Virus record (IMG/VR): IMGVR_UViG_2778261667_000017
Source: a virus
Lineage: Duplodnaviria; Heunggongvirae; Uroviricota; Caudoviricetes
DNA: 64,000 nt
Reading direction: 5' to 3' (one strand)
The translations under genes and the position numbers were made by a program. Below are positions 1-47,096 of this stretch, piece after piece; position 1 is the stretch's first letter; each line of letters opens with the position of its first letter. Below the pieces are notes generated by a model. It was not told the DNA's origin and searched no databases. It worked only from the letters and a program-made list of their open reading frames with translations.

Positions 1-1128
1 TCACAACGCTACTTTGATCCATCCTTTGCCTCGATCGTCATGATAACGATCGGTTTGCTGTTGTGTTTTATGACCAAGTAGTTTTTGTGTATCTAACCCC
101 TGTTCTTTGTACAGACGTTCAGATAAAGACCTTTGTTCATGGAATGTGGCAGGTGAACCTTCCCCCCAATCAATTCCTGCTAGATCCCTCGCTTTACTGA
201 AATTCATCGTCAATGTATTGGATTTAACCTGCGCGCCACGTTCGGCCTGTGAAGTAGTACGGAAAAAATGTACTAAGTATGGGCTGACTGCGTAGTCACG
301 GCAGCGGGCTACTACATCGCGTAAACTCCAGTTAATCGCGTTGAGACGAAGAGAAAGAGGAATTGCGATTTTGCTCCCGGTCTTTTCCTGAATGATATGG
401 AGATGATCATCCCAAATATCGCTAAATTTCATACGCGAGATATCACCTAACCTCTGACCGGTAACCAGTGCTAACAGCATGGCATTCCCCATATAACGAT
501 GACTGGCATCTGCGATATCAAAGATTTTTTGCCATTCTTCAAGGCTTAACCGTTGTCGGGTAATTTTTCTTCTGGGCTGTTTGGTCGCTAATGCTGGATT
601 ATAGCCAGGAGGGACCTCCCCATAGTGTTGTGCCTCCTTGAATACATCAATTAGAACGGAGCGGACTACTTGCGCCATCCTCGGTTGCCCAGCAGTGATA
701 TACTCGTCAAGCAATTGTGCTATATCCCTTACATCAACGGATGAAATTAACTTCATTCCTGCTCGTTCCCTGAGCAAGGATACTGGTTTGGCTTTCTGTT
801 TATAGGTGTTGAGCTTTATATCGCCACTTTTCAGTCTGTCATCCTGGATTGCTTGATAGCGATCTAACCAGGTTGACGTTGTGATTGCTTTTCCTTTGCT
901 GGTTGCGATCCTGTCACTGATAGCCAGAATCTGCCGGGTTCTTTGCTCAGCCAGGCGTGTATTGGCCTCAGTGGCAATAGCAATGGCTTCAGCTTCGTTT
1001 GCGCCCAAAGAATGAAACTTCCCGGTCACTGGATGCTTATATCGCCAATAGACTTTATTTACTTTTCTGCTATAGAGCGGATACAAGTTCGGGACTGAGA
1101 CATTATTTTTACGTGGTCTGGCTGCCAT
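1..1128 (-). CDS. int: Tyrosine integrase (e14 IntE-like), 375 aa
   Basis: 375-aa ORF; lambdoid integrase N-terminus and C-terminal catalytic region (HxxR...Y); sits at prophage end with xis upstream. Confidence 0.9.
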   Translation of the reverse strand: MAARPRKNNVSVPNLYPLYSRKVNKVYWRYKHPVTGKFHSLGANEAEAIAIATEANTRLAEQRTRQILAISDRIATSKGKAITTSTWLDRYQAIQDDRLKSGDIKLNTYKQKAKPVSLLRERAGMKLISSVDVRDIAQLLDEYITAGQPRMAQVVRSVLIDVFKEAQHYGEVPPGYNPALATKQPRRKITRQRLSLEEWQKIFDIADASHRYMGNAMLLALVTGQRLGDISRMKFSDIWDDHLHIIQEKTGSKIAIPLSLRLNAINWSLRDVVARCRDYAVSPYLVHFFRTTSQAERGAQVKSNTLTMNFSKARDLAGIDWGEGSPATFHEQRSLSERLYKEQGLDTQKLLGHKTQQQTDRYHDDRGKGWIKVAL

Positions 1129-3339: not shown

Positions 3340-3790
3340 ATCATATCGACCCTGCAAGGCCGGTTGGTTTCTCCACAAAACAGAGAAGAACACCTGCGGT
3401 GGCAGCCGCCCGGATGGATTGGGTTATGAGCCCGTCGTCCGGTGATGCTCTTCTCTGTTTTGTAAAAAGGACGGTACCAGCCGGAAGCAAGGGTACAAGC
3501 TGGTACCGCCAAGACTACACACAGCATAAAGTTGTGGTGCCGGGCGCCTCCCGGTGCCTAGCGAAGGTTGCACACCAGGCGGGTGGGTATCCACAGAAGG
3601 TCGACTGTCAGCCTCAACCTTTACCCGCGTGCGCTGAGCCGCATTCACCACAACGCTAAGGATTCTCTCTGGTTGAAAATACTTAGCTGTTATGTGCCTG
3701 CTTTTAGCCACATCAGGCGAGGTGGACCTGGTTATTCCCCAACAACAAGGATTCGGTTAATCTGGTTATCCCCAACAACGCAAAAGGAAA
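3340..3790. other. GC-rich structured non-coding region with nested inverted repeats and two direct repeats; candidate ncRNA or early-left promoter region
   Basis: Perfect 15-bp inverted repeat 3375-3389/3449-3463; 10-bp inverted repeat 3472-3481/3499-3508; direct repeats ctggttat(t)ccccaacaac at 3728-3747 and 3762-3780; overlapping ORFs here have non-protein-like composition. Confidence 0.4.
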
Positions 3791-3794
3791 AGAA

Positions 3795-4229
3795 ATGTCC
3801 GGTAATATCTATACGCTGTACAAATCCCACTGTGAAAATGTTGGAAAGTATCGGGGCATTGAAATCAGTGGGGTAGTGTCATCAGTCGAAATAAGCAAAG
3901 TTGAATCAAGGGCAACATTACTTACTCTTCTGGACCTTGTCTTACATGAGCACCGGAAGAAATTCGGCACTCCCTATAATCAGTTGAATGGGAAAAAGGC
4001 TCTGGTTCACCTTATTCTGATGAAGCATCACTGGATGCCAAAACAGATTAATGAGATGAAATTTGATGAACTTCTTCTTTCAATTCAGGATGAACTCACA
4101 CTTGATAAAATAAGCGTAACCGCCCAGAAATTTTTAGATTATCGAGACTGGAGATCACAAATTCATCACTTTGATGATTTTGACGAAAATGAATGGGATC
4201 CTAATTTGTCTGCACAATATCTAAAGTAA
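3795..4229 (+). CDS. Hypothetical protein, 144 aa
   Basis: ORF with AAGGA-type RBS about 8 nt upstream; protein-like composition; no recognisable family. Confidence 0.6.
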   Translation: MSGNIYTLYKSHCENVGKYRGIEISGVVSSVEISKVESRATLLTLLDLVLHEHRKKFGTPYNQLNGKKALVHLILMKHHWMPKQINEMKFDELLLSIQDELTLDKISVTAQKFLDYRDWRSQIHHFDDFDENEWDPNLSAQYLK

Positions 4230-4407
4230 CATCCTGTGATAAAACCGTGATTTCCTGATCCAGTTTTTTTAAGGAGTCTATTGTTTTCTGTCGATAAGAC
4301 AGCACTTCACGAAGCTGGTTTATAGCTGCCAGCTTCTTTGCCATCCACTCGTAAATTTCCTCATTTGTGTATCCGGGCGCGACGATTTTTGGTTCTGTTT
4401 TGTGCAT
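4201..4407 (-). CDS. Hypothetical small protein, 68 aa, predicted helical
   Basis: ATG preceded by GAGGAGG at 6-nt spacing; convergent with the 144-aa gene, 3' ends overlap by 29 nt. Confidence 0.55.
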   Translation of the reverse strand: MHKTEPKIVAPGYTNEEIYEWMAKKLAAINQLREVLSYRQKTIDSLKKLDQEITVLSQDVTLDIVQTN

Positions 4408-4467
4408 TTCACACCTCCTCAAGTTATCAGTTACTTGTTGATGGGGACCAGATTGTTAAAGAGCTAA

Positions 4468-4497
4468 GCGTCCTGTAGGGCGCTTTTTTGTTGCTAA
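4468..4497 (+). terminator. Putative rho-independent terminator
   Basis: Imperfect hairpin (aagcgtcc...gggcgctt) followed by T-run ttttttgtt. Confidence 0.35.
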
Positions 4498-4565
4498 CGA
4501 ATCATCCTGGACTTCATATGCCCCAGGCGGCTACTTCGTGGGCGTCCTGCCTGTTTGTTGTTTTT

Positions 4566-4620
4566 AACACCTTTAAGTTGTAATTTAGTTGTGATTTTGA
4601 ACATTGTCAACAACTTTATG
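4566..4620. promoter_or_regulatory. Operator-like motifs shared with the cI-cro intergenic region (putative OL-type site)
   Basis: aacacctttaagttgtaa (4566-4583) and gtcaacaactttatg (4606-4620) match aacacctaaaagttgtga (6286-6303) and ttacaactttatg (6261-6273). Confidence 0.55.
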
Positions 4621-4673
4621 TGGTTTGAACGTGTAGTCAAGGAGTGCAAGGATTATCAAAAAAAGGAGGTTGT

Positions 4674-5564
4674 ATGGAAGACGCGCTTTACGCTTTTAAT
4701 TACACACAGAACCGGGACAAGTTATTTGCTAACTTGATTAGCATCATTGATGGAATCATTGCAGATGGAGTTGTCCGTGAAGAGGAGGTTCTTTACTTAG
4801 ATACATGGTTACTTGAAGCAAAGCAGATTATCAATAATGGAGTTATAAAAAGTCTATCAGCACGGGTGTCGGATATTCTTGCGGATGGAATAATCACATC
4901 AGAAGAACGTGATGACCTTAAAAATAGCCTTCTCCAAATACAGAGGGAAATTCTTGATATCCCTGAAATTGATTTTTACTCCAAGGATGTAGATGTCCAT
5001 TTACTTAATGGACTATGTAAAGGATTAATTGCTGATCGGAACTTAACTCAAGAAGAAATAAGATATCTTAATTGGTGGCTTGAGCAAAATGGAGCTTTGA
5101 AGAACAACTACCCAGGAAAAAAACTTTATGCACTTGTAAAGGAAATTCTTAAAGATGGGGTTATTACTGAAGATGAGAGTTTAACTCTACATAAGGCATT
5201 AGTAGACTTCACAGGATGTGACTTGGAAAGTGGGGTGGTGGATGGTTTGGCGACCAGGCTGCCTATTGATGTAGGGGCTTCGATAGAGTTAGAGGGTAAA
5301 ACCTATTGTCTTACAGGCACTTTTGTTGCAGGAAAGAGAGCCGTAGTTGAAAATTTGATTAAAAATGCTGGTGGGAACATCAGTAGTGGAATTACTCAAA
5401 AGTTGGATTTTTTAGTAATTGGGACGCTTTCCTCCCGTGATTGGAAATTCTCAAGTCACGGAAGGAAGATCGAAAAAGCTATATCTTATAGGGATGATAA
5501 TGGTGCAAAACTTAAAATTATTTCTGAAGAAATGCTTTTCGATGCATTACCAAGTTCGCGATGA
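4674..5564 (+). CDS. BRCT-domain protein with four N-terminal helical repeats, 296 aa
   Basis: AAGGAGG RBS 4 nt upstream of ATG; C-terminus GKTYCLTGTF...KLDFLVIG...KLKIISEEMLFDAL fits the BRCT pattern of NAD-ligase C-termini; four repeats of about 35 aa with D-G-[IV]-[IV]-x-x-E-E signature. Confidence 0.75.
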   Translation: MEDALYAFNYTQNRDKLFANLISIIDGIIADGVVREEEVLYLDTWLLEAKQIINNGVIKSLSARVSDILADGIITSEERDDLKNSLLQIQREILDIPEIDFYSKDVDVHLLNGLCKGLIADRNLTQEEIRYLNWWLEQNGALKNNYPGKKLYALVKEILKDGVITEDESLTLHKALVDFTGCDLESGVVDGLATRLPIDVGASIELEGKTYCLTGTFVAGKRAVVENLIKNAGGNISSGITQKLDFLVIGTLSSRDWKFSSHGRKIEKAISYRDDNGAKLKIISEEMLFDALPSSR

Positions 5565-6233
5565 CCAGAATACCCTACCTATAACATGAATTCTGGCTCG
5601 TCTATCTTCAAAGGTGAGTATTTCATCTGGGTACTCATCTTTGTTGAAGCTTCTAAGAATCAAGCCACCGTCAGGTAAGTTGATAAGTATTTTAACCCTT
5701 AGCAATACACCATCTCGTACGGCATAAAGATCGCCATCACGAATAGGAATGGTTTGAGAAATATCAACGGCAACAAGATCTCCATTATTGAGAACCGGTA
5801 ATAAACTGTTCCCCCATATTTTTACGATCTTGGCATTAGATGCACATACGCCAGATTTTCTCAAATCTGCTCTTCTTAACGGAAACCAGTCAATAGCTGA
5901 TTCAACTATTTCAGCCAGACATCCGTTACCTGCCGATAACTCGACATCTAAAACAGGAATGTTTACGAAAATATCGGGGTCTAATGCGGTGCTTTCTGCT
6001 TCTTTTACAACAAGATCAGGTATGGATGCGTTGTCTTCAATACCAAGTTGTAACCACTTTTGTGATACACCTAAAACTTTTGCAATTTCTTTAATTTTGC
6101 GCGGTTGTAGAGTTTCGCCATTCTCTATTTTGGCTACAGATTGTTGTGAAAGTCCAATTTTTTCAGCTAGTTGAGCTTGGCTCATGCCAGCTTTCTCTCT
6201 ACCTATCTTTAATCGTTCTGCCAGTGTTTTCAC
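5547..6233 (-). CDS. cI: CI-type repressor (XRE HTH + S24 LexA-like peptidase), 228 aa
   Basis: N-terminal HTH (MSQAQLAEKIGLSQQSVAKIENG), C-terminal S24 autopeptidase motifs; divergent from cro. Confidence 0.9.
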   Translation of the reverse strand: MKTLAERLKIGREKAGMSQAQLAEKIGLSQQSVAKIENGETLQPRKIKEIAKVLGVSQKWLQLGIEDNASIPDLVVKEAESTALDPDIFVNIPVLDVELSAGNGCLAEIVESAIDWFPLRRADLRKSGVCASNAKIVKIWGNSLLPVLNNGDLVAVDISQTIPIRDGDLYAVRDGVLLRVKILINLPDGGLILRSFNKDEYPDEILTFEDRRARIHVIGRVFWSSRTW

Positions 6234-6368
6234 AACATATCCCTCTCTTTTTTGATGAGGTTACAACTTTATGTTTTAGCTTTCCAACACCTAAAAGTTG
6301 TGATAAAAGTTGTTAATGTTGTATTCTTGCAACTCGTAACAACTTAACTACCTAAAAAGGAGAAAGCT
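6234..6368. promoter_or_regulatory. cI-cro intergenic operator/promoter region (OR-like)
   Basis: Divergent genes; repeated ACAACTTT/AAAGTTGT half-sites at 6261-6345. Confidence 0.65.
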
Positions 6369-6617
6369 ATGACACCTGAGCAATTAGCCTTATCGGAGGC
6401 AATCGCTCTGGCTGGTGGTCAATCAGAATTGGCTCGGAAGCTCACAGCCAGCAGCGGTCATTTAGTAAAGCAACAACATGTCTGGAACTGGTTGAACAGA
6501 GAAAAGCGTCCCCCTGCAAAGCTCTCGATATTCATTGAAAAGACCACTGGCATATCAAAAGAAAAATTACGTCCAGATATTTTTCAAAAGATTAAAGATT
6601 CATCAGATGAAAAGTAA
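6369..6617 (+). CDS. cro: Cro-like HTH regulator, 82 aa
   Basis: Small HTH protein divergent from cI; AGGAG RBS. Confidence 0.8.
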   Translation: MTPEQLALSEAIALAGGQSELARKLTASSGHLVKQQHVWNWLNREKRPPAKLSIFIEKTTGISKEKLRPDIFQKIKDSSDEK

Positions 6618-6639
6618 CCACAGTTTTAAGGAGATAGCC

Positions 6640-7197
6640 GTGGGTAAGCATCACTGGAAAGTAGAAAAACAGCCTAAGTGGTACGTGAAAGCTGTCAGAA
6701 AAACTATCGCAGCGTTGCCGGGGGGTTACGCTGAAGCAGCTGACTGGCTGGATGTAACAGAGAACGCATTATTTAATCGCCTTCGTGCCGATGGCGATCA
6801 AATTTTCCCGCTGGGATGGGCAATGATTTTACAACGTGCTGGTGGCACTCACTTCATTGCTGACGCTGTGGCGCAGTCTGCAAATGGCGTCTTTGTGTCT
6901 CTTCCTGACGTCGAGGATGTGGACAACGCCGATATTAACCAGCGTCTGCTGGAAGTCATTGAACAGATCGGCAGTTATTCAAAACAGATTCGTTCAGCAA
7001 TCGAAGACGGTGTAGTGGAACCGCATGAGAAGACAGCAATTAACGACGAGCTGTACCTCTCAATTTCGAAGCTGCAGGAGCATGCAGCACTTGTCTACAA
7101 AATTTTTTGCATTTCAGAAAGTAATGACGCCCGCGAGTGTGCAGCTCCGGGCGTCGTGGCGTCGATTGCTTCTGGTTGTGGAGAAACTAACGCATGA
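6640..7197 (+). CDS. CII/YdaT-like regulator, about 185 aa (GTG start)
   Basis: Position immediately after cro; AAGGAG 6 nt upstream of GTG at 6640; family assignment tentative. Confidence 0.55.
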
Positions 7198-43231: not shown

Positions 43232-44013
43232 GCTGCCACCTTCTGCTCAGTGGCTTTCTGTTTCAGGAATCCAAGAGCTTTCACTGCTTCGGCCTGTGTC
43301 AGTTCTGACGATGCGCGAATGTCGCGGCGAAATATCTGGGAACAGAGCGGCAATAAGTCGTCATCCCATGTTTTGTCCAGGGCAATCAGCAGAGTGTTAA
43401 TCTCCTGCATGGTTTCATCGTTAACCGGAGTGATGTCGCGTTCCGGCTGACGTTCTGCAGTGTATGCGGTATTTTCGACAATGCGCTCGGCTTCATCCTT
43501 GTCATAGATACCCGCAAATCCGAAGGCCAGACGGGCACACTGAATCATGGCTTTATGCCGTAACATCCGTTTGGGATGCGACTGCCACGGCCCCGTAATT
43601 TCTCTGCCTTCGCGGGTTTTGAATGGTTCGCGACGGCATTCATCCATCCACTCGGTAACGCAGATCGGATGATTACGGTCCTTGCGGTAAATCCGGCATG
43701 TACAGGATTCATTGTCCTGCTCAAAGTCCATGCCATCAAACTGCTGGTTTTCATTGATGATGCGGGACCAGCCATCAACGCCCACCACCGGAACGATGCC
43801 ATTCTGCTTATCAGGAAAGGCGTAAATTTCTTTCGTCCACGGATTAAGGCCGTACTGGTTGGCAACGATCAGTAATGCGATGAACTGCGCATCGCTGGCA
43901 TCACCTTTAAATGCCGTCTGGCGAAGAGTGGTGATCAGTTCCTGTGGGTCGACAGAATCCATGCCGACACGTTCAGCCAGCTTCCCTGCCAGCGTTGCGA
44001 GTGCTGTACTCAT
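43228..44013 (-). CDS. bet: Bet single-strand annealing protein (Red beta), 261 aa
   Basis: Near-identity to remembered lambda Bet. Confidence 0.95.
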
Positions 44014-44018
44014 TCGTT

Positions 44019-44315
44019 TTATACCTCTGAATCAATATCAACCTGGTGGTGAGCAATGGTTTCAACCATGTACCGGATGTGTTCTGCCATGCGCTCCTGA
44101 AACTCAACATCGTCATCAAACGCACGGGTAATGGCTTTTTTGCTGGCCCCGTGGCGTTGCAAATGATCGATGCATAGCGATTCAAACAGGTGCTGGGGCA
44201 GGCCTTTTTCCATGTCGTCTGCCAGTTCTGCCTCTTTCTCTTCATGGGCGATCTGCTGGTAGTGACGCGCCCAGCTCTGAGCCTCAAGACGATCCTGAAT
44301 GTAATAAGCGTTCAT
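44019..44315 (-). CDS. gam: Gam (short form GamS), RecBCD inhibitor, 98 aa
   Basis: Near-identity to lambda GamS; CAGGAG RBS; upstream long-form ATG at 44434-44436 is out of frame. Confidence 0.9.
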
Positions 44316-44390
44316 GGCTGAACTCCTGAAAATGGCTGTGAAAATATCGCCCGCGAAATGCCAGGCTGATTAGGAAAACAGGAAAGGGGG

Positions 44391-44534
44391 TTAGTGAATG
44401 CTTTTGCTTGATCTCAGTTTCAGTATTAATATCCATTTTTTATAAGCGTCGACGGCCTCACGAAACATCTTTTCATCGCCAATAAAAGTGGCGATAGTGA
44501 ATTTAGTCTGGATAGCCATAAGTGTTTGATCCAT
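44391..44534 (-). CDS. kil: Kil, 47 aa
   Basis: [47 protein letters not shown] matches remembered lambda Kil. Confidence 0.8.
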
Positions 44535-44667
44535 TTTTTGGGACTCCTGGCTGATTAAGTATGTCGATAAGGCGTTTCCATCCGTCACGTAATTTACGGG
44601 TAATTCGTTCAAGTAAAGATTCGGAAGGGCAGCCAGCAACAGGCCACCCTGCAATGGCATATTGCAT
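44503..44667 (-). CDS. cIII: CIII (FtsH inhibitor), 54 aa
   Basis: Translated from sequence: MQYAIAGWPVAGCPSESLLERITRKLRDGW...; GGAG RBS; overlaps kil by 32 nt as in lambda. Confidence 0.8.
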   Translation of the reverse strand: MQYAIAGWPVAGCPSESLLERITRKLRDGWKRLIDILNQPGVPKNGSNTYGYPD

Positions 44668-44739
44668 GGTGTGCTCCTTATTTATACATAACGAAAAACG
44701 CCTCGAGTGAAGCGTTATTGGTATGCGGTAACGCCGCGT

Positions 44740-45108
44740 TCAGGCGGCTTTGATAGTCATATCATCTGAATCAAATATTCCTGATGTATCGATATCGGTA
44801 ATTCTTATTCCTTCGCTACCATCCATTGGAGGCCATCCTTCCTGACCATTTCCATCATTCCAGTCGAACTCACACACAACACCATATGCATTTAAGTCTT
44901 TCGAAATTGCTATAAGCAGAGCATGTTGCGCCAGCATGATTAATACAGCATTTAATAAAGAACCGTGTTTATTTAGTCGGTATTCAGAGTCTGACCAGAA
45001 ATTATTAATCTGGTGAAGTTTTTCCTCTGTCATTACGTCATGGTCGATTTCAATTTCTATTGATGCTTTCCAGTCGTAATCAATGATGTATTTTTTGATG
45101 TTTGACAT
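44740..45108 (-). CDS. Hypothetical protein, 122 aa, in the ea10/ssb accessory slot
   Basis: AT-rich ORF between cIII and ral; no recognisable domain. Confidence 0.6.
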   Translation of the reverse strand: MSNIKKYIIDYDWKASIEIEIDHDVMTEEKLHQINNFWSDSEYRLNKHGSLLNAVLIMLAQHALLIAISKDLNAYGVVCEFDWNDGNGQEGWPPMDGSEGIRITDIDTSGIFDSDDMTIKAA

Positions 45109-45307
45109 CTGTTCATATCCTCACAGATAAAAAATCGCCCTCACATTAGAGGGCAAAGAAGATTTCCAATAATCAGAACAAGTCGGCTCCTGTTTAGTTA
45201 CGAGCGACATTGCTCCGTGTATTCACTCGTTGGAATGAATACACAGTGCTGTGTTTATTCTGTTGTTTATGCCAAAAATAAAGGCCGACTATGCGGCCTG
45301 AAATTAC

Positions 45308-45752
45308 TTAACCAATGATGCTGCATATTCGATAAGGTAAAGCTTTGGGGCCAGCCAAATTTTTAACCAAGTCATATTGGTTACTACACCAATAATAAAA
45401 ATCCCCCACAGAGTCAAAACTCCAACCAATGGCTGATAAGAAGGTTAATATCTCCTTTGCTATCCCAAACCATTGTCGGCCTGTATTTGGGATTTCCCCT
45501 CTCCCATGAGTATCCTTCATCACCGATTTTACCTGTCTCAACTCTTTGGCACTGCTTCTTCATAAACCAGAAAACCAGTGGGATTGTTAGAATGGCTATT
45601 AATGTTTTAATCAGACTGTCAACCATATTCCATAGCAGCAACTGATGAACAACATCAGGAATCTGCGCTTGGCTGAATGAAACAGCCGCGTCTATTCCAT
45701 TGCTGGCTTTTTGCAGTAGTTCTACGAGAATCTTGTTTGCTTGTTCTTCCAT
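45308..45752 (-). pseudogene. Possible frameshifted membrane-protein gene (two overlapping ORFs in different frames)
   Basis: ORF 45414-45752 has an N-terminal soluble region plus TM helix; ORF 45308-45541 overlaps it by 128 nt in another frame. Confidence 0.3.
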
Positions 45753-45811
45753 ATATCCCCTTGATTGTAATAAGCATGAAATTATTTACGGCCAAAAAAT
45801 AAAGGCCACCA

Positions 45812-46012
45812 TCAGGCAGCCTTGTTATTCTGTTTACCAAGTTCTCTGGCAATCATTGCCGTCGTTCGTATTGCCCATTTATCGACATATTTCCCATCTT
45901 CCATTACAGGAAACATTTCTTCAGGCTTAACCATGCATTCCGATTGCAGCTTGCATCCATTGCATCGTTTGAATTGTCCACACCATTGATTTGTATCAAT
46001 AGTCGTAGTCAT
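45812..46012 (-). CDS. ral: Ral (restriction alleviation), 66 aa
   Basis: Sequence matches remembered lambda Ral; position left of N. Confidence 0.75.
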   Translation of the reverse strand: MTTTIDTNQWCGQFKRCNGCKLQSECMVKPEEMFPVMEDGKYVDKWAIRTTAMIARELGKQNNKAA

Positions 46013-46225
46013 ACGGATAGTCCTGGTATTGTTCCATCACATCCTGAGGATGCTCTTCGAACTCTTCAAATTCTTCTTCCATATATCACCTTAAATAGTG
46101 GATTGCGGTAGTAAAGATTGTGCCTGTCTTTTAACCACATCAGGCTCGGTGGTTCTCATGTACCACTACAGCGAGAAATCGGATAAACTCTATTCACCCC
46201 TACAGAGAGCAAAAGAGAAACGCCG

Positions 46226-46807
46226 ATGAACAACTCATGGTGGCAGGAACTAATGCATTTTTTCCTGCAAGGAATGACACTTAAACAGTTGATTCATATG
46301 CTAATCATCCTGATCATATTGATTATTGTTATGCCGGTAAGCGTAAAAGAATGGATAAACCTGCATAATCCAGAAATCCTTCCTCATTACTGGATGTATT
46401 ACATCCTGTTGTTTTGCGTTAGCTATGTGCTTAACGGCGTTGTTAATTCCGCTTATCACGCTGTGACTGAAAGAATTGAGGTATCCGCTGCTCAGAAGCG
46501 CAAATCTAAAGAAGAAAAATATGTGCAAGATTTGTTTGATTCATTAACTCTTGGAGAAAGAGCGTATTTGGCATTTGCTGTAGCCGCTAATAACCAGCTA
46601 CAAACGGAAAAGGGAGCTCATGAATCAATTTCATTGCTCAAAAAAGGACTCCTCGCTCGAAGGCCTCCTGCTGTTGGATATCCTGATACCGACCGTTTCG
46701 TTATCCCTGAAAGCTATAGACATGAGTGCTACATTAGGTTTGCCGGGAAGGCAGACAGCCTTATGGATGAACTTATCGCTCAGGATAAGCATGGCAAAAA
46801 CAAGTAA
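46226..46807 (+). CDS. sieB: Superinfection exclusion protein SieB, 193 aa
   Basis: Hydrophobic N-terminal half with TM helices; size and position match lambda/P22 sieB. Confidence 0.75.
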   Translation: MNNSWWQELMHFFLQGMTLKQLIHMLIILIILIIVMPVSVKEWINLHNPEILPHYWMYYILLFCVSYVLNGVVNSAYHAVTERIEVSAAQKRKSKEEKYVQDLFDSLTLGERAYLAFAVAANNQLQTEKGAHESISLLKKGLLARRPPAVGYPDTDRFVIPESYRHECYIRFAGKADSLMDELIAQDKHGKNK

Positions 46808-46823
46808 TTAGCAAATGAATTTA

Positions 46824-47096
46824 TCATCTCGCCGTCAGTTGTTTTGATTTCCGGTAGCCTGCCGCGTAAATGGCTACGTTTGGCAGGCAAATACTTCCAC
46901 TGCATTCATCTGCCTTCTTGCAGCGAAGGCTTCCGAGTGATGCTGCTTTGTCTGCTCTGACGCAACCAGAGAGCTTTAGCGCAATTTTTCGCGCCAGTCG
47001 CTGTTCTTGCATTGCCTGCTCACGTTGAGCCTGTCTGCGTGCTCTGCGGCGATTTCTGGCGTTATCGTCAGCCAGATATGTAATGACTACTGCCAT
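46824..47096 (-). CDS. N: N-type antiterminator (P22 gp24-like), 90 aa
   Basis: Arginine-rich RNA-binding motif NARNRRRARRQAQ; C-terminus LPNVAIYAAGYRKSKQLTAR; first gene left of the immunity region. Confidence 0.75.
   Translation of the reverse strand: MAVVITYLADDNARNRRRARRQAQREQAMQEQRLARKIALKLSGCVRADKAASLGSLRCKKADECSGSICLPNVAIYAAGYRKSKQLTAR

Follow-up and report, generated by a model that had tools for sequence, protein, structure and literature searches.

The intergenic region at positions 4566-4624 raises two questions, namely whether it is the left operator (OL) of a lambdoid prophage and, if so, whether the repressor that would bind there also governs the gene for a BRCT-domain protein that starts just to the right of it. 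The prophage lies at the start of the window, by which we mean the whole 64-kb stretch of DNA that was analysed. It carries an integrase gene (1-1128, minus strand), a leftward early arm of yfdP/Q/R-like genes (minus strand), an ECs1072-family gene (3795-4229, plus strand), a 68-aa gene (phrog_1744; 4201-4407, minus strand), the BRCT gene (4674-5564, plus strand; 296 aa), the gene of a cI repressor with HTH_3 and S24 peptidase domains in Pfam (5547-6233, minus strand), cro, which encodes a YdaS-family helix-turn-helix protein (6369-6617, plus strand; Pfam PF15943, 7.8e-15), and a CP76/YmfL-type cII (6640-7197, plus strand). The leftward 68-aa and rightward BRCT reading frames are as they had been described in an earlier note made from the sequence, and the start codon of the BRCT gene is the ATG at 4674, and not 4666. 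The window also holds a second, lambda-like prophage (43500-47000) with homology to bet, gam, kil, cIII, ea10 and sieB, and Rfam detects the lambda cIII thermoregulator element at 44622-44680 on the minus strand (88.5 bits).

The earlier note had pointed out that the strings at 4566-4583 and 4606-4620 closely match others in the cI-cro intergenic region, and that its reading would fail if the motif were a common and unrelated sequence. The strings are in place and the match holds, 4566-4583 being identical to 6286-6303 at 15 of 18 bases and 4608-4620 to 6261-6273 at 11 of 13, and the exact 12-mer ACAACTTTATGT is common to both control regions. Nor is the motif a common one: the heptamer AAGTTGT occurs 15 times in the 64 kb, and six of these copies fall within the two intergenic regions, which together measure 386 bp and would be expected to hold 0.05 (Poisson P about 3e-11), an enrichment of about 100-fold across the two control regions. 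The consensus operator is a 15-bp dyad, ACAACTT-N-AAGTTGT, and a search of the window for ACAACTTNAAGTTGT with at most three mismatches returned 10 matches against 3.0 expected, a count that was reached in 0 of 100 shuffles. The best-placed matches are two OL and two OR sites with one or two mismatches each, the left and right regions carrying the same repressor-site motif (four dyads with two or fewer mismatches to ACAACTTNAAGTTGT; enrichment P about 4e-9). Two further candidates were set aside. The sequence AAGTTGTAACC within cI (6045-6055) was rejected as an extra operator, not being kept in one lineage (L002), and ACAGCATAAAGTTGT at 3521-3535, about 1 kb left of OL with two dyad mismatches, was taken as a probable chance match because it falls within an early-left ORF that is frameshifted, in the flank common to other immunity types.

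On the left, OL-a (ACACCTT-T-AAGTTGT, 4567-4581; one dyad mismatch, mean identity 88.6% over 12 lineages) covers the start region of a predicted leftward promoter, PL, and OL-b (ACAACTT-T-ATGTGGT, 4610-4624; two dyad mismatches, 97.1%, with 14 of 15 columns invariant in the 12 lineages) has the -35 hexamer of PL on one side and that of a candidate BRCT promoter on the other. On the right, OR-a (ACAACTT-T-ATGTTTT, 6263-6277; mean identity 95.1%) falls in the predicted PRM, over its spacer and -10, and OR-b (ACACCTA-A-AAGTTGT, 6287-6301; 92.7%) adjoins the -35 of PRM and overlaps that of PR. By analogy, the position of OR-a would be OR3-like and that of OR-b OR2-like; in its sequence OL-b is closer to the OR3-like OR-a than to OR-b. 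The strong halves of OR form two pairs with an equal start-to-start spacing of 32 bp. There are also heptamer copies without a dyad partner, which do not fit the dyad model: s2 (TAGTTGT, 4586-4592, plus strand) overlaps the PL -10 at a position fixed in 12/12 lineages, and s6 (6307-6313), s7 (6316-6322) and s9 (6339-6345) are likewise at fixed positions in the 12 lineages, s9 being 100% conserved. These lone half-sites may be Cro sites or auxiliary half-sites for cI.

The conservation of these elements was read from loci collected by a cI search (one genome per species) and a BRCT protein search of IMG/VR, with cI proteins 57-100% identical. All loci returned carry a BRCT-cI-cro cassette of this kind, its BRCT gene and cI being convergent and overlapping. 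The alignment was restricted to 12 diverged lineages (cI 57-93% identical) whose spacers are near random identity. Over these lineages the operator and promoter blocks have a mean pairwise identity of 88-100%, whereas the spacers have 27-38%. Thus OL-a stands at 89%, the PL -10 together with s2 at 88%, the PL -35 at 95%, OL-b at 97%, OR-a at 95%, OR-b at 93% and s9 at 100%, against 31% in the PL spacer, 27% in the left flank and 30% at 6328-6338. In addition, the imperfect half of OL-a swaps sides by lineage, from ACAcCTT-T-AAGTTGT here to ACAACTT-T-AAGgTGT in others, a mirror-image substitution that is expected for a symmetric site. One of the collected cassettes (L004), on a contig labelled Pseudomonas lundensis, is of the Enterobacterales type and near-identical to an IMG/VR locus (L040), probably owing to mis-binning, contamination or a very recent transfer.

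The predicted PL consists of TTGACA (4610-4605, minus strand; mean identity 94.9%), 17 nt and TAAATT (4587-4582, minus strand; conserved in the 12 lineages), and matches 10 of 12 consensus positions in the promoter scan, a score that reflects consensus match only. It is bracketed by the two operators: OL-a lies over the predicted start near 4575, and OL-b touches the -35. A second leftward promoter called by the scan, TTGACT-16-TAAAGT (4640-4613), was rejected, its -35 not being conserved. The first gene of the leftward PL transcript is the 68-aa gene, which is outside the immunity module in a flank common to SfIV. Similarity to prophages of other immunity (SfIV, SfV, SfII and e14 of K-12) ends at ~4563 and resumes at ~6630, just past cro, and therefore delimits a module of ~4564-6630, which is an uncharacterised lambdoid immunity module made up of OL, the BRCT gene, cI, OR and cro. 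OL is at the left boundary of this module, OL-a beginning 3 nt past the end of the shared flank, and SfV has at the same junction a motif of its own, GGTACA, which is present both in its OL and in its annotated operator region.

Given the dyad symmetry, the 12-lineage footprint, the near-consensus and operator-flanked PL, the position at the module edge and the OR-type motif of SfV at the same junction, 4566-4624 is very probably the ordinary OL/PL of its immunity module, which upholds the OL-equivalent reading of the earlier note. The same note had called the layout unusual; the operator itself is ordinary, and it is the second output toward the BRCT gene that is mildly unusual.

Some features of the surroundings of OL deserve mention on their own. 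The ~70 nt of the PL leader (4493-4563) are 89-100% identical in about 2000 E. coli genomes, and the genomes that share it include those of other immunity regions (e14 of K-12, SfV, SfII and SfIV). A put- or nut-like RNA in this leader was considered and rejected, since its fold is no better than that of shuffles (z = 0.01) and the one stem position that varies does not covary; the leader also has no Rfam match. Between the ECs1072-family gene and OL there is a strong intrinsic terminator on the plus strand (4466-4485, an 8-bp stem followed by a T-run), located 5' of OL, which would keep rightward transcription from reading through into OL and the BRCT promoter. Read on the minus strand, the same element is a hairpin without a U-tract within the PL leader.

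In regards to the right operator, the predicted PRM (6258-6287, minus strand) consists of TGGAAA (6286-6281; mean identity 97%), a 17-nt spacer and TAACCT (6263-6258; 82%), the -10 being TAACCT or TAATCT in the relatives. The register of OR-b followed by TGGAAA, 17 nt, the -10 and the cI leader is kept in 10/12 lineages; in the two most distant ones (L005 and L006) the best PRM -10 hexamer is 1 nt further downstream. The predicted PR (6298-6327, plus strand), as read from the alignment, consists of TTGTGA, an 18-nt spacer and TATTCT, which is TATAAT in most relatives. The predicted start sites of PR and PRM are about 83 bp apart, and those of PR and PRM in lambda are 82 bp apart.

The second question depends on how the BRCT gene is transcribed. 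Only 49 bp separate OL-b from its start codon, and they hold a putative -35, TTGAAC (4625-4630, plus strand; TTGATT in most relatives; mean identity 89.9%), and a putative extended -10, TGc AAGGAT (4645-4653, plus strand; 91.9% for the hexamer at 4648-4653). The two are separated by 17 nt without indels in 12/12 lineages, with a spacer only 38.5% identical, and TGN is found 5' of AAGGAT in 10/12 lineages. This TTGAAC-17-TGcAAGGAT element, which abuts OL-b, is the only conserved promoter candidate for the BRCT gene. With 7/12 consensus positions and the TGN it is under the threshold of the promoter scan; the PRM of lambda is about as weak. The layout of operator, hexamer, 17 nt, hexamer and short leader is the same at OL-b and the BRCT promoter as at OR-b and PRM, and about 85 bp lie between the predicted start sites of PL and of the BRCT promoter. 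The predicted elements are thus those of a PRM-type promoter, with a weak core, a repressor site abutting the -35 and a back-to-back arrangement with a lytic promoter. PL, PR and PRM have an operator element inside the core promoter, whereas the core of the BRCT promoter has no conserved operator, the centre of OL-b being near -44. A site of this -44 type is the position from which the lambda and 434 repressors activate PRM. The repressor of CP-933P also activates its PRM from such a position (PMC8630535). By eye, neither a LexA box nor, at the BRCT -35, a YdaT-type TTGATT-N6-AATCAA site was found. A paralogy of the BRCT leader with the cI leader (ATCAAAAAA...) was dropped as evidence, as it holds in the closest lineages only.

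On this architecture OL would be a second back-to-back switch, and we somewhat favour the view that PL and PR are shut in the lysogen and that the BRCT gene is expressed there. In the proposed mechanism, cI dimers at OL-a, OL-b, OR-a and OR-b would silence PL and PR in the lysogen. The dimer at OL-b would sit between two -35 hexamers as the dimer at OR-b does, and given this shared placement cI at OL-b could turn PL off and would permit, and probably stimulate, the weak rightward BRCT promoter. In that case the BRCT protein would be cargo made in the lysogen, its gene occupying the place that rexAB has in lambda. To judge by the architecture, BRCT expression that is both lysogenic and stimulated by cI has at best an even chance of being correct, and the promoter geometry argues for cI-stimulated or cI-tolerant expression in the lysogen over repression. 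The proposed wiring of the BRCT gene into the lysis-lysogeny switch is supported as far as architecture goes, the gene being co-inherited with cI and its promoter candidate abutting OL-b. The sequence itself shows the shared motifs with their enrichment, symmetry and conservation, the promoter-like elements with their registers, and the gene linkage; binding, the sign of regulation and the role of the protein we infer. A more far-reaching version is possible but doubtful: OL could be a full second genetic switch, in which one OL-b dimer silences PL and activates a PRM-like promoter, and the BRCT protein could belong with the repressor module as its dedicated partner and not be a passing moron.

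The BRCT protein (phrog_3989) has two helical domains followed by a C-terminal BRCT domain of the NAD-ligase/RFC1 type, according to Pfam, an AlphaFold2 model and Foldseek. Pfam BRCT (PF00533) is matched at 1.3e-6, with 29 bits against a cut-off of 21.3, and the N-terminal 200 aa have no Pfam match. Foldseek matches it to the BRCT domains found in RFC1, XRCC1 and LigA, at target-normalised TM-scores of about 0.56-0.61, and in PDB and BFVD the fold searches gave matches to the BRCT domain only. The PADLOC profile of the candidate defence gene PDC-S48 is matched in part only, its positions 239-377 (of 411) by residues 119-251 of the protein (E = 2.4e-7), and a literature search for BRCT with prophage or defence found nothing relevant. 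On the far-reaching version given above, the protein could act in the lysogen against phages or in exclusion, or it could instead sense DNA ends or nicks and feed back on prophage maintenance or induction, to which the convergent transcription of the BRCT gene and cI could add a built-in feedback.

The BRCT gene is present in 47/5426 complete E. coli genomes and co-occurs with cI in every homologous locus found. One E. coli lineage (L002 4160-4310, and L054; about 24 genomes) has a ~0.75-kb internal deletion of the BRCT gene and keeps its start codon and 3' end along with OL-a, OL-b, cI and cro; the BRCT gene is therefore not needed for the switch itself. In this lineage the -10 block of the BRCT promoter has decayed, to which we give little weight as it is a single event with ambiguous changes. 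In an Oceanimonas prophage of other repressor specificity (L059), with the operator ATAAGTATGCTTAT, an exact 15-mer common to the local OL and OR and a P22-type Cro, a BRCT homologue is likewise read rightward from the local OL, and no convincing equivalent of the BRCT-promoter register was found there. The convergent layout of the BRCT gene and cI is found in this prophage and in L061; in L061 and L062, where the gene calls are ambiguous, the sequence upstream of the BRCT gene has no k-mers in common with the presumed control region of cI. The Aeromonas prophages have the homologue in the interval from the cI operon to OL/PL, in the direction of cI and bracketed by terminators, a placement which by analogy resembles that of a moron in the rexAB slot. 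Finally, an orphan homologue in Aeromonas veronii (L060 3501-4412) is found beside LacI, PTS and SIS genes with no recognisable prophage, and belongs to a cluster of 111 member sequences.

Some of these observations run against the favoured model of lysogenic expression. The BRCT gene and cI are convergent with an 18-nt overlap (5547-5564) that is kept in all lineages, and activity of both at once would cause transcriptional interference. The cI strand has no predicted terminator. Further, the BRCT promoter has 7/12 consensus positions and was not called by the scan, OL-b is closer to OR-a than to OR-b, the lone half-sites fall outside the dyad model, the lineage with the deleted BRCT gene keeps cI, cro and OL, and in Aeromonas a terminator stands before the homologue, which makes its co-transcription with cI uncertain.

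In the most probable of the rivals the site is still OL and the BRCT gene is an early lytic gene: cI at OL-b, possibly looped to OL-a or OR, would silence the BRCT promoter in the lysogen, and the BRCT transcript made on induction would be antisense to cI and would aid commitment to lysis. The convergent overlap speaks for it, as does the terminator scan, in which the minus strand from the cI stop to OL has no predicted terminator and the BRCT stop is followed by no more than a weak terminator-like site (5596-5619). The convergent layout, moreover, comes back in L059 and L061, and the operator touches the BRCT -35 hexamer. However, the core from -36 to +1 is without a conserved operator element, its spacer being only 38% identical, and a site centred near -44 is in an activator or neutral position, as OR2 is for PRM in lambda, and not in that of a repressor. 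The Aeromonas homologues, being co-directional with cI and flanked by terminators, indicate that an antisense role is not general, and an orphan copy is kept outside prophages. We consider an early lytic BRCT gene unlikely.

Quite unlikely, in our view, is that OL controls PL alone and that the BRCT promoter is weak and constitutive, sitting beside OL-b through the compactness of the intergenic region, with a match to the PRM register that would be coincidental. The TGN extended -10 and a -35 with 4/6 positions could work without an activator, PL requires OL-b at its place in any case, and L059 has no convincing equivalent register that can be read. Against this stand a BRCT-promoter register that is free of indels in 12/12 lineages and matches the PRM register in 10/12, and the strict co-inheritance of the BRCT gene with its cI. 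That the shared strings are due to chance or to generic AT-rich promoter sequence is highly improbable: both regions are AT-rich, the shared 12-mer holds a -10-like TAAAGT and the scan did call a chance leftward TTGACT-16-TAAAGT, but the enrichment statistics, the dyad symmetry, the contrast in conservation between blocks and spacers, the unconserved TTGACT hexamer and the different immunity-specific motifs of SfV at the same junction all speak against it.

Operator sets at OL and OR, and the recognition of an OL by its likeness to OR, are already textbook knowledge. What is added here is the operator code of this immunity type, a BRCT gene fixed in the module, and evidence that OL is organised as a second OR whose further output resembles PRM. 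An immunity type that is carried by ~1% of complete E. coli genomes and is found across Enterobacterales thus has its operator code, its predicted promoters and its limits defined. The design is simple and testable, a left operator resembling the right operator of lambda, with one repressor site serving a lytic and a lysogenic promoter, and, if true, it would give a handle on a conserved BRCT-domain prophage protein in the slot of the RexAB exclusion system of lambda. In a literature search that was not exhaustive, we found no description of an OL with a PRM-like output toward a BRCT gene.

Among known systems, lambda has the same general plan, with repressor sites common to the left and right control regions (~1.7 kb apart here, 2.3-2.4 kb in lambda), operators that overlap the early promoters, back-to-back promoters at OR (~83 bp here) where one operator lies directly beside the maintenance promoter's -35, and an accessory gene between cI and OL as in cI-rexA-rexB. 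The dyads here are 15 bp, however, against 17 bp in lambda, and each region has two full dyads along with lone half-sites. The accessory gene is inverted with respect to that of lambda, being convergent with cI, and its predicted promoter is its own and back-to-back with PL, so that OL looks like a second OR; in addition, no cI-strand terminator is predicted after cI.

In its DNA-binding domain the repressor is closest to that of phage 434, which is the best PDB match of the cI N-terminal domain (phmmer, 1PER/2OR1, 4.2e-13). The start of the recognition helix, SQQSV, aligns with TQQSI of 434, and (S/T)QQ(S/A) is kept in all lineages; the sixth residue of the helix is a lysine here and a glutamine in 434. 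The operators of phage 434 are ACAA-N6-TTGT, and the sites here also begin with ACAA and end with TTGT, but they are 15-bp dyads of ACAA-N7-TTGT with a conserved inner CTT/AAG, compared with 14 bp in 434, so the repressor-operator pair would work as that of 434 does, with a specificity that is related and not identical.

The switch of CP-933P from E. coli O157:H7 (PaaR2, YdaS, YdaT), in which low repressor levels activate PRM and OL/PL was also identified by likeness to OR, shares with our prophage a YdaS-family Cro, an OR with mixed inverted and direct repeats and, if the favoured reading is right, lysogen cargo tied to the repressor gene (PMC8630535). It differs in the family of its repressor and in its motif, GTTTAGTAA, and its toxin-antitoxin (TA) cargo is co-transcribed with the repressor (PMC8630535), whereas the BRCT gene would be read divergently from OL. 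SfV, SfIV and e14 share the flanking modules and have a near-identical PL leader up to ~4563, a cII-like ymfL to the right of cro and an OL at the same place; they have, however, another cI, another cro and another operator motif (GGTACA in SfV), the interval from OL to cI is free of genes, and cI is followed by a terminator.
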